From the IMG/VR virus record IMGVR_UViG_3300023107_000001, positions 1 through 40,815 of that record: DNA of 40,815 nt. One strand, written 5' to 3'. Source of the DNA: a virus. The first letter of the stretch is position 1, and every line of letters begins with the position of its first letter. The notes below the pieces were generated by a model. It did not search any database. It saw only the letters and a program-made list of their open reading frames with translations, and was not told the DNA's origin. Below, piece by piece: positions 4,589-39,715 of this stretch. Position numbers and translations under genes: made by a program.

Positions 4589-4774
4589 ATGCAATATTTT
4601 ATACTATTTTCTGAGTCCACAGAATACAAAGTCAAATACAGCGTACTAAAAACAATCATAAATCTATACAATCAAGGGGTATCAAACTTAACCTTGGTTG
4701 CGGAACTAACAAAATGTGTAGTCGAGATAGACAAAATTAACAAGACAGCAACTTACACGTGTGTAGGGGTTTAA
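4589..4774 (+). CDS. hypothetical protein (first gene of the rightward early block)
   Basis: ORF with an AGAGGT RBS. Its stop codon lies inside the first CRISPR-repeat mimic. Confidence 0.4.
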   Translation: MQYFILFSESTEYKVKYSVLKTIINLYNQGVSNLTLVAELTKCVVEIDKINKTATYTCVGV

Positions 4775-4884
4775 ACTGCCGTGTAGGCAGCTTAGAAATA
4801 TGAGGCTTTGTTTTACTACCGAATAGGTAGCTTAGAAATATGATGTCTTACGCTTATTATACTGCCGAATAGGCAGCAAACATC
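4771..4884 (+). CRISPR. Three tandem type I-F CRISPR-repeat-like units (mini-array or solitary-repeat mimic), not a canonical array
   Basis: Unit 1 is TTAAACTGCCGTGTAGGCAGCTTAGAAA (4771-4798). Unit 2 is TTTTACTACCGAATAGGTAGCTTAGAAA (4811-4838). Unit 3 is TTATACTGCCGAATAGGCAGCAAACATC (4857-4884). The hairpins are 5 bp with a 5-nt loop. The pseudo-spacers are 12 and 18 nt. Confidence 0.7.
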
Positions 4885-8297: not shown

Positions 8298-9049
8298 AAT
8301 ACCTAGTTTATTTACGCGTGTCAACTGATGAGCAAGAAACAGAAATGCAAATGGAGCTATGTAAAGAGTATGCAAGAAAGAACAACCCCGCTGGCGATTA
8401 CACGATAGAATTTTTCAATGATCAATCGATGTCATCTGGCGTTGAGTATAAAAAACGTACAGAGCTTCAAAAGATGTTATCTTCTATTAAGAAAGGTGAT
8501 ACAGTTTTAGTTTATAAGCTTGATCGACTTAGCCGAGATATAATAGAGATGGTTACAATTTATAGGTTGATAGTTAGAACTCTAGAAGCAAAAGTTGTTT
8601 CTTTGAACGACCCATACAGCGATGAATTTACCGTAGGTTTAATGGGTTTGCTAGCCCAAAAAGAAAGAGATACGACAAGAATTAGGGTAAAAGATGGATT
8701 AGGAAACAAGAAGAATAAAGGCCAAAGATATTCAGGAAAGCTACCATACGGCTATGGAATGCATGAAACTAAATTAGTACCCATCAGGAAAGGGAAGGAA
8801 ATTGTAATGAAGCGCGGTGTGCTTGTTCCCATTGCTGAAGAGCAAAAGGTAATTGCTCTGATGGAGAAACTTGCTGCTGAGGGTAGATCATACCAGGACA
8901 TTGCCACGACTCTAACGCTGTGGGGGCATAAGAGTCGGGAAGAAACTCCATTTCACAAGATGACTGTTTGGCGGATTCTTCAGAGAATAAAAGAAGAAAA
9001 GTTGAAGGGTCGACCTCCAACGGGGAGAGAAGTGGAGTTGATTCATTAA
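8294..9049 (+). CDS. serine recombinase (resolvase catalytic domain plus recombinase domain; no zinc-ribbon or coiled-coil domain)
   Basis: YLRVSTDEQ catalytic serine motif, LDRLSRD, then GQRYSGKLPYGYG...SYQDIATTLTLWG...WRILQR. Confidence 0.85.
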   Translation: MKYLVYLRVSTDEQETEMQMELCKEYARKNNPAGDYTIEFFNDQSMSSGVEYKKRTELQKMLSSIKKGDTVLVYKLDRLSRDIIEMVTIYRLIVRTLEAKVVSLNDPYSDEFTVGLMGLLAQKERDTTRIRVKDGLGNKKNKGQRYSGKLPYGYGMHETKLVPIRKGKEIVMKRGVLVPIAEEQKVIALMEKLAAEGRSYQDIATTLTLWGHKSREETPFHKMTVWRILQRIKEEKLKGRPPTGREVELIH

Positions 9050-13936: not shown

Positions 13937-14482
13937 ATGATCGACTCTGTAAAGTCTAGAGAAAACTATTTGCGCGTAACCAGCGTACTATATCCATTCA
14001 GTGGTTTACAGGCTATAAACCCCGACATTGTCGCTTATGCCGCTGAGCGCGGAACAAAAGTTCACAAGATTTGTGAGGGAATAGCCGAAGGAATTGGGGA
14101 AATCGGCGTCGAAGATGAGACTTGGGGGTACGTTGAATCATTTAAAAAGTGGTGGGATTCTGGCATAGACGTTGTCAAAATTGAACAACGCTTTTGGGAT
14201 GATGAACTTTACATCACGGGTCAGGTTGATTTTATCACAAATACTGATAAAGGCATGGCTATTGTAGATATAAAAACCTCATCTCGGCCGTCTAAAACCT
14301 GGCAAGCTCAAGGCTCTGCCTACGCCTATTTAGCTAAAAATAATGGCTATGACATCAAAAGAATCATTTTTCTACATCTAAACAAACATGGCAAAGAGCC
14401 GAAGCTATACGAATACCCTGTTGATGATTCATTTTTTCTAGCTATTTTAAGAACTTATAAACATTTCTATCACAAGGATTGA
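13937..14482 (+). CDS. PD-(D/E)XK nuclease (Cas4/RecB-like exonuclease without a Cys cluster)
   Basis: GTKVH, GQVDF, IVDIKTS and QAQGSAYAYL (QxxxY) motifs in the canonical order. It lies upstream of RecT. Confidence 0.7.
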   Translation: MIDSVKSRENYLRVTSVLYPFSGLQAINPDIVAYAAERGTKVHKICEGIAEGIGEIGVEDETWGYVESFKKWWDSGIDVVKIEQRFWDDELYITGQVDFITNTDKGMAIVDIKTSSRPSKTWQAQGSAYAYLAKNNGYDIKRIIFLHLNKHGKEPKLYEYPVDDSFFLAILRTYKHFYHKD

Positions 14483-14483
14483 C

Positions 14484-14672
14484 ATGAACAATTTAAGCGA
14501 TCTTATGCAAGAAAGATTAGACCGCTGGAGGAATAACACTCTTGTAGTGCCTGCCGTATCAAAAGTTAGAAACGAAGCTCCATCTAGACGAAATGGTAAA
14601 AACGATTATGGCGATGCAATGACTCTAGAAGAATGGGAAGCAGAAGCTAAGAAAAGTCAAACTAGGAAATAA
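14484..14672 (+). CDS. hypothetical protein
   Basis: ORF between the nuclease and RecT genes. Confidence 0.45.
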   Translation: MNNLSDLMQERLDRWRNNTLVVPAVSKVRNEAPSRRNGKNDYGDAMTLEEWEAEAKKSQTRK

Positions 14673-14674
14673 CT

Positions 14675-37715: not shown

Positions 37716-38320
37716 TAATAGATTGTATAGGTGACCGGGCTAAGAAGCTGCCGACTAAGATTTTTCATTACTCTAAAGATAAGATAAAGTCTCTGAAGAA
37801 GGATTTTAACGCATCTATTAACGATGAATACTCAGTGAAACCTTGCGGATTATGGGTCAGCATCGAAGATGATGATGAGGATATTTCCTGGTTTGAATGG
37901 TGTAAGAATGAAGAATTTAGATTGGAAAACCTAAAATACAAATATACAGTTAATATTTCTAGTAAAGCCAACATACTACACTTAAAAACTCCTGAGGAGA
38001 TAGACGAATTTACAAATAACTACGTTCTAGAAGATTTCTTTAATACTACACTCTTAAACAGCTTGTACATCAACTGGAAGAAAGTAAAGGAAGAATATGA
38101 CGGAATTATTATTTCCCCCTATCAGTGGGGTTGTAGATTTAGACTTAATACTACATGGTATTATCCATGGGACTGTTCTAGCGGTTGTATCTGGAATACT
38201 GATAAAATCTCCATAAAACTACACTCTACTATAGATGTAGAATCTATTCGACCGAAGGAATGCCTGGAGGTGGAAACATCGACGGATTCACTATTGGCAA
38301 GTCTTGTCCTGTCACCGTGA
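37712..38320 (+). CDS. hypothetical Trp/Cys-rich protein (KPCGLWVS...YDGIIISPYQW...WYYPWDCSSGCIW)
   Basis: 202-aa ORF overlapping the upstream gene by 4 nt. The conserved-looking motifs could not be assigned to a family. Confidence 0.5.
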   Translation: MIIDCIGDRAKKLPTKIFHYSKDKIKSLKKDFNASINDEYSVKPCGLWVSIEDDDEDISWFEWCKNEEFRLENLKYKYTVNISSKANILHLKTPEEIDEFTNNYVLEDFFNTTLLNSLYINWKKVKEEYDGIIISPYQWGCRFRLNTTWYYPWDCSSGCIWNTDKISIKLHSTIDVESIRPKECLEVETSTDSLLASLVLSP

Positions 38321-38708
38321 ACATTCCTCCCTTAACATACGGAGTAAAGAATCTACCGTCAATAGGAAGTGTATTACGATCAGCCAGGTAAAAGGCATCC
38401 AGGGTTGCTCCTTGTACAAAGAATAAGCGATTATTAAGCTGCTGCATACCAGTTGCGTTTGCAAATGGCATCTGTACGAACTTAGTAGCTCTGAGTGATT
38501 GTCCATTCATTAACCCGTGTGCTGTTTTAGTTACGTAGATGGGTAAAGTGTTGGTTACGTTCTCAGGAACGAACTGACGCAATGTGTAGTGGCTTGGCGA
38601 TGAATCTGGGTTGTTTGGATAAGGACTTAGCGGTTGCGTGTCGATAAAGACATACATTGGATCCAATGGGTCTTGAGGATTAGGCATTGGATCCAATGTG
38701 CTTGTCAT
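38244..38708 (-). CDS. Pro-rich protein with an FCCH-like beta-barrel, outside the structural operon
   Basis: IYVTKTAHGLMNGQSLRATKF...MQQLNNRLFFVQGATLDAFYL. Confidence 0.5.
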   Translation of the reverse strand: MTSTLDPMPNPQDPLDPMYVFIDTQPLSPYPNNPDSSPSHYTLRQFVPENVTNTLPIYVTKTAHGLMNGQSLRATKFVQMPFANATGMQQLNNRLFFVQGATLDAFYLADRNTLPIDGRFFTPYVKGGMFTVTGQDLPIVNPSMFPPPGIPSVE

Positions 38709-39154
38709 TTTACTTTGACTCCAGCTTTAGGACTGTGTGGGAATCTAGCTTCGTGAATATCAGGTGAACCTTCACTTCTTGCACGATCTCTACGATACTC
38801 CCATCTCTGGTCTCTAGCCTCATTCTTATTAAACGCTTTCCTGTGAAAATCATAGAAAGAGCTTTGGTTGGGACCAATAGACTTATCTTCAGTGTTTTTC
38901 AGTGAAGCTAGGTCAAAGAAGATGGCAGCCAGGTTACCAATCACAGGGATCAATAGAAGAGCACAACGCCCAGCAGACTTTTGATCAATATGAGTGAAAT
39001 AATGGCTATCAGCAATATTCTTCTTATCCATGAACGGTAGAACAAGACACTTCTGAAATAAATCTACGATATTTGTAATCGTACTAAAAACGGGCACATA
39101 GTCAAAAAAGTTATCTAAACTTACCATGCGACTACGGACACTGCCAATAGACAT
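38705..39154 (-). CDS. membrane-associated protein, paralog B of 1424-1897
   Basis: The start is moved to the ATG at 39154 (GGAGGA RBS), which removes the overlap with the tRNA-like element. FFDYVPVFSTITNIVDLFQKCLVLPF...RCALLLIPVIGNL. Confidence 0.6.
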   Translation of the reverse strand: MSIGSVRSRMVSLDNFFDYVPVFSTITNIVDLFQKCLVLPFMDKKNIADSHYFTHIDQKSAGRCALLLIPVIGNLAAIFFDLASLKNTEDKSIGPNQSSFYDFHRKAFNKNEARDQRWEYRRDRARSEGSPDIHEARFPHSPKAGVKVK

Positions 39155-39220
39155 ATAAGATCCTCCAATGTTTGTAACTTCAATATAATAATTATTTTGA
39201 ATTAAGTCAACAGAGGAAAT

Positions 39221-39299
39221 TGCAGAGTGTAGGACTTGCACCCACAACGCTAAGGACGGCCTTCAAACCTTAGCTGCCATTCAATTCGGCCAACCCTGC
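39221..39299 (-). tRNA. tRNA-like cloverleaf 1 (79 nt) with a non-canonical anticodon arm (7-bp stem, 12-nt loop)
   Basis: Acceptor GCAGGGT/ACTCTGC, D stem GCCG/TGGC, T arm GTGGG-TGCAAGT-CCTAC. G-U pairs favour the minus orientation. No 5-7-5 anticodon arm can be drawn. Confidence 0.45.
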
Positions 39300-39302
39300 G
39301 AA

Positions 39303-39375
39303 AGACACGTTTAGGACTTGCACCTAAATCTCTCTACCCAAATTTCAAGCGCTCTACTAATTGAGCTAACATGTC
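39303..39375 (-). tRNA. tRNA-like cloverleaf 2 (73 nt) with a degenerate anticodon arm
   Basis: Acceptor GACATGT/ACGTGTC, D arm GCTC-AATTAGTA-GAGC, T arm TTAGG-TGCAAGT-CCTAA. The 17-nt anticodon segment CTTGAAATTTGGGTAGA pairs poorly. Confidence 0.45.
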
Positions 39376-39475
39376 AAAAGACGGAATTTTAAAGATGTTC
39401 CGTCCCATCTTAGGTACGATTCGTACCTAGGTACCTGGCAAGCATCTATTACATACCTTACCAGGTTTAATCTTT

Positions 39476-39715
39476 TTACTCTCTTAAAATACTCATGATA
39501 CTCCACAGATTATCATGCATACAATCAAGAATTCTACGCAATTCATCTAACTTTTCAGCTTCTACGTCGTAATCTGAATGCCAATAAGGGTCATGCTTAC
39601 TAAGTTTATCGAAAATATCATTATCTAAGACAGACTTTAGCACACTCTCAGCTCTGCCCACAGATTGTATTTTTCTTACGACGTCTACGCCTAAATTAAA
39701 TTCTACTTCTGCCAA
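39476..39715 (-). CDS. hypothetical protein
   Basis: ORF. Confidence 0.5.
   Translation of the reverse strand: MAEVEFNLGVDVVRKIQSVGRAESVLKSVLDNDIFDKLSKHDPYWHSDYDVEAEKLDELRRILDCMHDNLWSIMSILRE

Follow-up and report, generated by a model that had tools for sequence, protein, structure and literature searches.

Two tandem tRNA-family genes with non-canonical anticodon arms in a phage genome

Phage tRNAs have recently been recognised as a means of countering defences that destroy tRNA, something that has been shown only for normal decoders carrying a few substitutions. I consider here two adjacent genes, el1 and el2, at positions 39221-39375 of IMG/VR virus record IMGVR_UViG_3300023107_000001, which appear to go a step further: the anticodon arm as a whole is made longer, made larger, or exchanged, and the rest of the tRNA is kept. 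The window, by which I mean the entire stretch of 40,815 bp that was analysed, is the complete genome, with direct terminal repeats, of an uncultured phage, and el1 and el2 are the only tRNA-like genes in it. My view, held with moderate confidence and argued from comparison with related phages, is that el1 and el2 encode selected tRNA-shaped RNAs, the first non-decoding and the second uncertain in that respect. The most likely role for these RNAs, and a speculative one, would be in a conflict over tRNA nucleases.

Known nucleases provide a reason for selection to act on exactly the anticodon arm. In the case of P2 OLD, which cleaves the anticodon stem on both strands, resistance was traced to the arm by swapping arms between tRNAs, and the phage tRNAs that resist OLD have an altered motif and a shortened anticodon stem (PMC12445682). 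PARIS AriB cleaves the anticodon stem of the tRNAs for Lys(UUU), Thr(UGU), and Asn(GUU), and the authors of that work consider it possible that AriB is inhibited by some viral tRNAs (PMC12409363). Mutations within the loop let phage tRNAs escape anticodon nucleases, with changes in loop length going unmentioned (PMC10264068).

The tRNAs for Lys, Thr, and Asn that T5 sets against PARIS AriB and the phage tRNA-Thr set against P2 OLD are cargo tRNAs of phages (PMC12409363, PMC12445682, PMC10264068), as are el1 and el2, and like them el1 and el2 depart in the anticodon arm, in the geometry of the stem as well as in its sequence. Relatives of the phage that carries el1 and el2 also bear Asn GUU and Thr UGU tRNAs, which are known nuclease targets, as in PARIS. 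The published evaders, however, differ by one to three substitutions and remain canonical decoders with a 5-bp stem and a 7-nt loop. El1, with a 7-bp stem and a 12-nt loop, and el2, with a weak stem and a loop of 7 or 8 nt, exceed this. El1 does not have the arm geometry of a canonical decoder; el2 forms three of five stem pairs when its U33 is in place.

Then there is the example of Staphylococcus aureus, in which tRNA-Gly species of the non-proteogenic (NP) kind do without G18-G19 and U55, carry a changed anticodon loop, and play a role off the ribosome (PMC13443448). El1 and el2 likewise lack G18-G19 and U55, as do all of NP1-NP3, and on my reading they resemble the NP tRNAs also in combining an altered geometry of the anticodon loop with a tRNA body retained for something besides decoding. 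The loops of the NP tRNAs are shortened, however, and these tRNAs have a UCC anticodon and glycine identity and serve Fem transferases. In el1 and el2 the loops have instead been enlarged, and the eight neighbouring proteins examined include no recognised transferase family. A 6-bp stem with a loop of 6 nt is seen, on the other hand, in three genes of related phages described below (L033A, L027A, and L041B).

Three further systems deserve mention. RNAC and RNAD of phage T4 are small stable RNAs encoded in a phage tRNA cluster, and their function is described as unknown (PMC9697503). At about 139 and 119 nt they are longer than el1 and el2, and they do not form complete cloverleaves. The nearest published intron-like oddity is the "enigmatic introns" of Lak megaphages, which likewise make phage tRNA genes overlong by an unexplained insert in the anticodon region (PMC6784885). 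The Lak inserts are longer and are identical across cohorts of 540-kb Prevotella phages with a recoded genetic code, whereas the insertion here is one of 3-5 nt that goes with a lengthened stem, and it has no consistent site. Finally, +1 suppressor and engineered quadruplet tRNAs (PMC8481270, PMC4764823) have an 8-nt loop, as does el2 in its best-paired register, but they keep U33 and a firm 5-bp stem, where el2 and L041A, an analogue of it described below, have A at the U33 position.

Two genes of the tRNA family

The pair is laid out as follows.

39303..39375, minus strand: el2, a 73-nt tRNA-family gene; ARAGORN call Gln(UUG), Rfam tRNA score 41.9 bits
39300..39302, minus strand: spacer UUC, 3 nt, between el2 and el1, read from the sequence; CCA is not encoded
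39221..39299, minus strand: el1, a 79-nt tRNA-family gene; ARAGORN call "???(ga)", Rfam tRNA score 32.8 bits

A preliminary description of this stretch, made by reading the sequence, had placed two tRNA-like elements here on the minus strand, 3 nt apart, and had recommended running ARAGORN with intron settings and searching Rfam. Both approaches agree on the pair. The Rfam tRNA family (RF00005, gathering threshold 29 bits) matches el2 and el1 above its threshold and only on the minus strand, with E-values of 2.1e-7 for el2 and 6.8e-5 for el1 in a search of 801 nt, or 2.5e-9 and 8.2e-7 per genome. El1 is not listed by a gathering search of the whole window; it passes in the search of the region or the genome. 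No Rfam family other than tRNA was found for the region at E-values up to 10. In the alignment to RF00005 the anticodon arm of el2 is skipped as a local end, and el1 has an insertion in the anticodon loop. ARAGORN called both genes, el2 with an arm of three pairs in five and el1 with an abnormal loop.

The body of each molecule is that of a tRNA. The acceptor stems are paired at all seven of seven positions, with one U-G pair in el2 and one G-U pair in el1. The D stems have 4 bp and the T stems 5 bp with a 7-nt loop, and all pairs are formed; the preliminary description had given both elements near-perfect acceptor stems, each with one G-U pair, as well as D and T arms. In el2 the D arm is GCUC-AAUUAGUA-GAGC, the T arm UUAGG-UGCAAGU-CCUAA, and the discriminator U. 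In el1 the D arm is GCCG-AAUUGAA-UGGC, the T arm GUGGG-UGCAAGU-CCUAC, the variable region 3 nt, and the discriminator A. The T loop TGCAAGT, with G55, is thus common to both, and the D loops (AATTGAA in el1 and AATTAGTA in el2) lack GG; these features and the absence of CCA had been correctly noted. The orientation had also been correctly assigned, for the plus-strand folds are predicted to be far weaker (-18.5 against -28.0 and -12.2 against -19.8 kcal/mol). Thermodynamically the cloverleaves are not distinctive by themselves (z of -1.05 and -2.1); the case for them rests on covariance-model scores and comparison with relatives. El1 and el2 are real genes of the tRNA family.

The T-arm regions of the two genes (39227-39251 in el1 and 39309-39333 in el2) are 80% identical over 25 nt, an identity that suggests an origin of the pair by tandem duplication.

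With the acceptor, D, and T arms intact, the anticodon arm is the sole part that has been rebuilt. The anticodon stem of tRNA is invariant at 5 bp, and a longer stem displaces the anticodon from the acceptor end. One would look for a stem of that length closing a 7-nt loop with U33 and a purine at position 37. This is not what el1 has. Instead, a 7-bp stem (GCUAAGG/CCUUAGC) closes a 12-nt loop, UUUGAAGGCCGU, with the layout U-UUGAAGG-CCG-U, and the cloverleaf containing this arm is the predicted minimum-energy fold, which agrees with the stem and loop drawn in the preliminary description. In intron mode, ARAGORN makes of el1 a tRNA-Phe(GAA), with a Phe-like loop UU-GAA-GG and three extra nucleotides, CCG. 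Even with CCG taken away the stem is 2-3 bp too long, so the anticodon would lie out of ribosomal reach. As modelled, el1 is a tRNA look-alike that should not decode.

El2 is harder to read. In the register chosen by ARAGORN there is a 7-nt loop, A-U-UUG-G-G, with U33 and the anticodon UUG, but only three of five stem pairs, and two bases are needed between the D and anticodon stems. In the best-paired register four of five pairs form, with a G-A mismatch in the stem, and the loop is one of 8 nt, AAUUUGGG, with A at the position of U33. The preliminary description had denied el2 both a 5-7-5 arm and U33. The reading shifted by one base does supply both a 5-7-5 arm and U33, along with UUG, with only three of the five pairs formed. 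El2 may still work as a tRNA-Gln(UUG) with a weak stem and decode CAA, or else it may be non-decoding as well.

Rebuilt arms among related phages

Relatives were retrieved through the large subunit of terminase (TerL), yielding 72 viral loci and 77 metagenome loci, nearly all with TerL identities of 59-100% and a few outliers at 31-43%. The group is one of tailed phages, and many of its members are genomes of about 40 kb from soil, rhizosphere, and groundwater samples. An anticodon loop was counted as abnormal if it had the wrong size, no U33, or A34. By this measure 13 of the 40 distinct ARAGORN calls in the phage group are abnormal, compared with 5 of 146 calls from a non-random set of control phage loci (Fisher p = 1.4e-6). 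The count of 13 is conservative, since el2 and the two genes G023_83 and G019_105 go unflagged. The most instructive of the odd genes are these.

G023_83 (TerL 78%): canonical elbow, discriminator A, 8-bp anticodon stem with a 12-nt loop
L041A (TerL 83%): the D arm and G55 T loop of el2, a clean 6-bp stem, 8-nt loop AAAUUAGA
L126:3258-3353, L033A (L033:2238-2332), L027A (L027:487-581), and L041B (L041:6767-6860): class II, Leu-like
L033B (TerL 88%): 25-nt insert in the anticodon arm
G019_105 (TerL 81%): 41-nt insert in the anticodon arm

G023_83 is the analogue of el1. Its loop, U-UUCAUGA-UUG-U, has the same layout as that of el1, and its acceptor strand reads GCAGAGG where that of el1 reads GCAGGGU. 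L041A is the analogue of el2, with a loop that is the counterpart of el2's 8-nt loop, and a second odd element follows it after 3 nt, exactly the spacing of el2 and el1. In the two analogue comparisons none of 16 body-stem pairs is broken, and five are changed on both sides.

The Leu-like genes tell a similar story on a different body. All four are distinct (TerL identities of the L033, L027, and L041 loci are 83-88%), and each has one extra base 5' of U33 and compensated stems. The first and last bases of the loop are always complementary, and the arm either has a loop of 8 nt or extends its stem to 6 bp around a 6-nt loop of the form N-U-(U/C)AA-R, the latter shown by L033A, L027A, and L041B. 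L126 is a canonical Leu tRNA arm with a single inserted C, and the canonical version of the class II gene is present in two other loci, L029 and L143. Counting L126, an 8-nt anticodon loop is found in L041A, in L202, and in the best-paired register of el2.

Elsewhere it looks as if the arm alone has been replaced. L029:3649-3738 and L142:2245-2336 align as almost identical class II bodies with unrelated anticodon arms, that of L029 being a canonical 17-nt arm with UAA and that of L142 having 19 nt and a 9-nt loop, CUC-GUA-GAG. Rebuilt arms are recurrent and enriched in the lineage, occurring on several tRNA bodies and with paired stems, and the anticodon arm behaves there like a module that varies while the body bearing it is conserved.

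The elbow is a separate matter. The standard contacts, G18-G19 with U55-C56, are found in neither el1 nor el2, and the preliminary description had taken the missing D-loop and T-loop signature as an abnormality. I do not take it as a sign of decay, because unrelated phage tRNAs whose anticodon arms are normal have this elbow too. The T-arm word GGTGCAAGTCC is present in normal phage tRNAs for Val, Ile, and Gln, scoring 55-62 bits. The D arm of el2, GCTC-AATTAGTA-GAGC, is found in 21 viral contigs, and G55 in 10 of the 11 distinct complete phage tRNAs that carry this D loop (contigs L098, L099, L100, L103, L108, L109, L110, L112, and L117), tRNAs with canonical anticodon arms for Trp, Met, Asn, Asp, Phe, and others. 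Across unrelated phages, the loss of G18 together with the presence of G55 has the appearance of covariation in the elbow contact G18-U55. A D loop without GG, combined with G55, is best regarded as a coherent variant body type rather than a defect, and presumably a functional one. The lack of an encoded CCA, listed among the departures as well, is normal for phage tRNAs, the ordinary tRNAs carried by the relatives included.

Six other viral contigs (L097, L101, L102, L104, L111, and L116) contain only the 5' third of a tRNA, that is, the acceptor strand and D arm. In these, shared GGAAAAAGTAAAA-type sequence and coding DNA replace the anticodon arm, and the partial tRNAs look like fragments at recombination or attachment sites.

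The cargo slot and its surroundings

El1 and el2 lie in a slot about 2.7 kb upstream of terminase, between two conserved genes. Besides the pair, the region contains the following, where an open reading frame is abbreviated ORF.

39476..39715, minus strand: conserved 79-aa gene, the upstream border of the slot; tblastn homologues in at least 14 related loci
39378..39466, minus strand: structured leader with three hairpins (39433-39466, 39411-39429, and 39378-39406), from the predicted fold
39182..39210, minus strand: candidate sigma-70-type promoter TTGACT-17 nt-TATATT between el1 and the 149-aa ORF, called from 10 of 12 consensus matches only
38705..39154, minus strand: 149-aa cargo ORF in the slot, downstream of el1; no homologue in the TerL-related loci
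38244..38708, minus strand: conserved 154-aa gene, the downstream border of the slot; 48 tblastn matches in related loci at 60-74% identity

In the window, then, the slot holds hairpins, el2, el1, a near-consensus promoter, and the 149-aa ORF. Across the relatives the borders are conserved and the content varies: no tRNA, normal tRNAs (mostly for Asn, Asp, Thr, and Met), odd tRNAs, or small ORFs. Compared in this way, the slot is evidently variable cargo between conserved borders.

The leader is predicted to fold strongly, at -35.9 kcal/mol (z = -4.78), and none of 200 shuffled sequences folds equally well. The preliminary description had counted two hairpins upstream of the pair where there are three. 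Their sequence is not conserved in the relatives. From their predicted structure they could be terminators, an attenuator, or elements of RNA stability.

The neighbouring proteins say little. Pfam and PHROG gave no match for the 79-aa and 149-aa proteins, and for the eight flanking proteins they gave nothing informative except a DUF3310 / nucleotide-kinase-like fragment. The 149-aa protein was compared with a 248-aa protein as a possible relative, and the two are unrelated. Repeats that would mark a mobile cassette were looked for at the flanks, and none was found. A Pth2-linked tRNA-mimic cassette was also considered, in which a peptidyl-tRNA-hydrolase-like gene (Pth2, PF01981) stands next to the mimics; PF01981 has no match in the window or in four relatives with odd elements. 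At the junction of the genes for the 149-aa and 154-aa proteins (38654-38699) there are two exact copies of a palindrome, CATTGGATCCAATG, 30 nt apart, which jointly make up a 15-nt perfect inverted repeat.

The sole match in a bacterial genome is a 10.9-kb contig binned in a Bacteroidales metagenome-assembled genome, a contig that has no tRNA and may be phage DNA. The hints about the host conflict, for against this contig stand the type I-F repeat mimics of the window at 4771-4884. These are three type I-F-like repeat units on the plus strand, ACTGCCGTGTAGGCAGCTTAGAAAT and two variants. El1 contains a sequence, GGCAGCTAAG, that resembles the 3' end of these units, and it was considered as a type I-F CRISPR repeat akin to the phage's repeat mimics, GGCAGCTTAG. 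I ascribe the likeness to chance, because 2.3 random occurrences of a 10-mer at one mismatch are to be expected in the window and el1 is without the repeat hairpin. Reuse of the el1 loop elsewhere was considered too, but the 16-mer GGTTTGAAGGCCGTCC, found in five viral contigs, lies in every case within coding sequence and has no tRNA shape.

Among the other contigs, an unrelated 74-kb phage contig carries a GOLLD RNA (L015:8285-8748, minus strand; Rfam RF02032, 203 bits) within an array of 29 tRNA genes, and this RNA encloses a tRNA-Thr call at 8611-8684. The freshwater-2 motif occurs in L012 and L014.

A proposed role and its competitors

I propose, as a speculation, that el1 and el2 have a role in conflict over host nucleases that cut the anticodon arms of tRNAs. 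The two would be transcribed together with the upstream operon, or just after it. RNase P and 3' trimming would release them, and CCA would be added as it is to other phage tRNAs that do not encode it. The resulting RNAs would either be insensitive to anticodon-arm nucleases or occupy the nucleases as decoys or inhibitors. It is similarly tentative to suppose that the arm is an exchangeable, hypervariable module on conserved bodies that yields non-decoding look-alikes such as el1, acting as decoys or inhibitors of anticodon-arm nucleases. The preliminary description had spoken of tRNA-shaped RNAs with non-canonical anticodon arms, and this is supported. It had offered decay, decoys or mimics, and processing signals in explanation; comparison with relatives favours decoys or mimics, and it does not separate decoys from processing.

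A good deal can be said against selected tRNA-shaped RNAs of any sort. The anticodon stem of el2 is poor in every register and looks degraded beside the clean 6-bp stem of L041A, and its minimum-energy fold competes with the cloverleaf and disrupts the T arm. The closest relatives of the phage, with 90-93% TerL identity, have no tRNA at all in the slot. Comparison with relatives turned up recurrent analogues, but no close homologues of the genes themselves: the D-arm word of el1 has none in IMG/VR, the arm pattern of el2 and L041A has no match in the metagenome collection, and matches among sequenced phage isolates are limited to generic words of the D arm or T arm. No argument from conservation can thus be made for el1 and el2 themselves. 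G023_83 and L041A may not be orthologues of el1 and el2, and intact stems in two sequences are to be expected of any two real tRNAs. The enrichment of abnormal loops is subject to the choice of its controls, and long perfect stems could come from template-switch mutation without selection. As to expression, a promoter scan found none next to the pair, and the last hairpin of the leader, a 9-bp stem followed by UUUU, is terminator-like and abuts the 5' end of el2.

Several of these points are just what one would expect if el1 and el2 were decaying pseudogenes, cargo tRNAs no longer needed that gather insertions and substitutions on their way to being lost. The covariance scores, 32.8 and 41.9 bits, are low where the normal tRNAs of the same slot reach 55-73 bits. 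The slot freely gains and loses tRNAs, to the point that the closest relatives have none. The stem of el2 resembles a degraded form of that of L041A, and one inserted C is all that separates L126 from a canonical Leu arm. I nonetheless consider decay unlikely. It fits poorly because the damage is confined to one arm, the arm is still paired, and the layouts recur. In el1, el2, and nearly all of their odd relatives the pairs of the acceptor (seven of seven), D, and T (five of five) stems are intact. The abnormal arms are themselves well paired, with stems of 6-8 bp. The same layouts recur on different bodies, and in L029 and L142 what is otherwise the same body bears a wholly different arm. Abnormal loops are, moreover, strongly enriched over control phages. 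Intact bodies and a remodelling that recurs with compensated stems speak against the decaying genes of the preliminary description.

It is improbable that el1 and el2 are unusual decoders, whether el2 is to be a tRNA-Gln(UUG), el1 a tRNA-Phe(GAA) that tolerates or loses three nucleotides, or the two are to read four bases. ARAGORN does give Gln(UUG) with U33 for el2 and, in intron mode, Phe(GAA) with the loop UUGAAGG for el1, and the phage uses CAA more than CAG (190 against 124) and prefers other codons ending in A or U. There are functional phage tRNAs whose anticodon stems have been deliberately weakened (PMC12445682), and 8-nt loops are a hallmark of +1 suppressor tRNAs (PMC8481270). Against this, el1 has a stem 2-3 bp over the standard five and an anticodon that would be too far away even without the three nucleotides, and el2 has three pairs in five with U33 and lacks U33 in its best register. 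The +1 suppressor type does not fit the loops, since that of el2 in its 8-nt form has A at U33 and goes with a G-A mismatch in the stem, and that of el1 has 12 nt. The intron model is not supported either. The sites given by ARAGORN are inconsistent (40/41, 32/33, and 35/36) and none is at 37/38, the el1 stem is still too long after removal, and no pathway for splicing small introns is known in bacteria.

Four-base decoding might be expected to leave split genes in the genome. All ORFs of four complete relatives were compared with the window, a comparison that covers the genes with orthologues there. The window's only split gene (13937-14482 and 14485-14673, plus strand) comprises ORFs of 181 aa and 62 aa in adjacent frames (...GAT TGA C ATG...). 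In G001 and G002 it is a single 245-aa ORF, and in G018 and G023 the C-terminal piece is absent. The second piece comes with an ATG and an AAGGA ribosome-binding site of its own, and the quadruplets at the junction, GAUU and UUGA, match neither el1's loop nor el2's. 13937-14673 is probably a split or coupled gene pair, not a programmed shift. In the two other carrier genomes, G018 and G023, the comparison found no split genes.

Less probable again is the view that the tRNA shapes serve only as RNase P or RNase Z sites, defining the ends of neighbouring transcripts. The mascRNA of MALAT1 is a tRNA shape that serves as a processing site in this manner. The L041 pair is suitably placed where the transcript of an operon ends, 7 nt past a stop codon and just ahead of a hairpin and a terminator. 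In the window, cleavage by RNase P would leave the upstream RNA with the three strong hairpins before el2 as its protected 3' end. An ordinary tRNA would do this equally well, however, which leaves the rebuilt and diversified anticodon arm unexplained, and most relatives have no tRNA of any kind in the slot. The preliminary description had suggested punctuation of the transcript just before a gene it called paralog B, and this is weakened because a near-consensus promoter of its own stands between that gene and el1, and because the relatives that carry similar elements lack a homologue of the gene.

Very improbable, finally, is that el1 and el2 are non-proteinogenic aminoacyl carriers, charged, kept off the ribosome, and feeding a transferase like the cell-wall tRNA-Gly of S. 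aureus, for although the missing G18-G19 and U55, the altered loop, and the extra base pair of those tRNAs (PMC13443448, PMC4574755) are three kinds of departure seen also across the el1/el2 cassette, the G55 elbow without GG is not diagnostic, occurring as it does in normal-armed phage tRNAs of many specificities, no Fem-type enzyme, L/F-transferase, or other aminoacyl-tRNA-dependent enzyme was recognised among the eight neighbouring proteins, and the neighbours are not shared with relatives bearing similar elements.

I return to el1 and el2 as selected tRNA-shaped RNAs. There is a practical side to them, in that gene finders will call such genes pseudo-tRNAs or assign to them amino acids that they probably do not carry. 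RNAs of their type, if they are indeed decoys or inhibitors, would be simple probes of what anticodon-arm nucleases recognise. And tRNA mimicry would then join the known RNA-based tools of anti-defence, in parallel with the CRISPR-repeat mimics that the same phage apparently carries.

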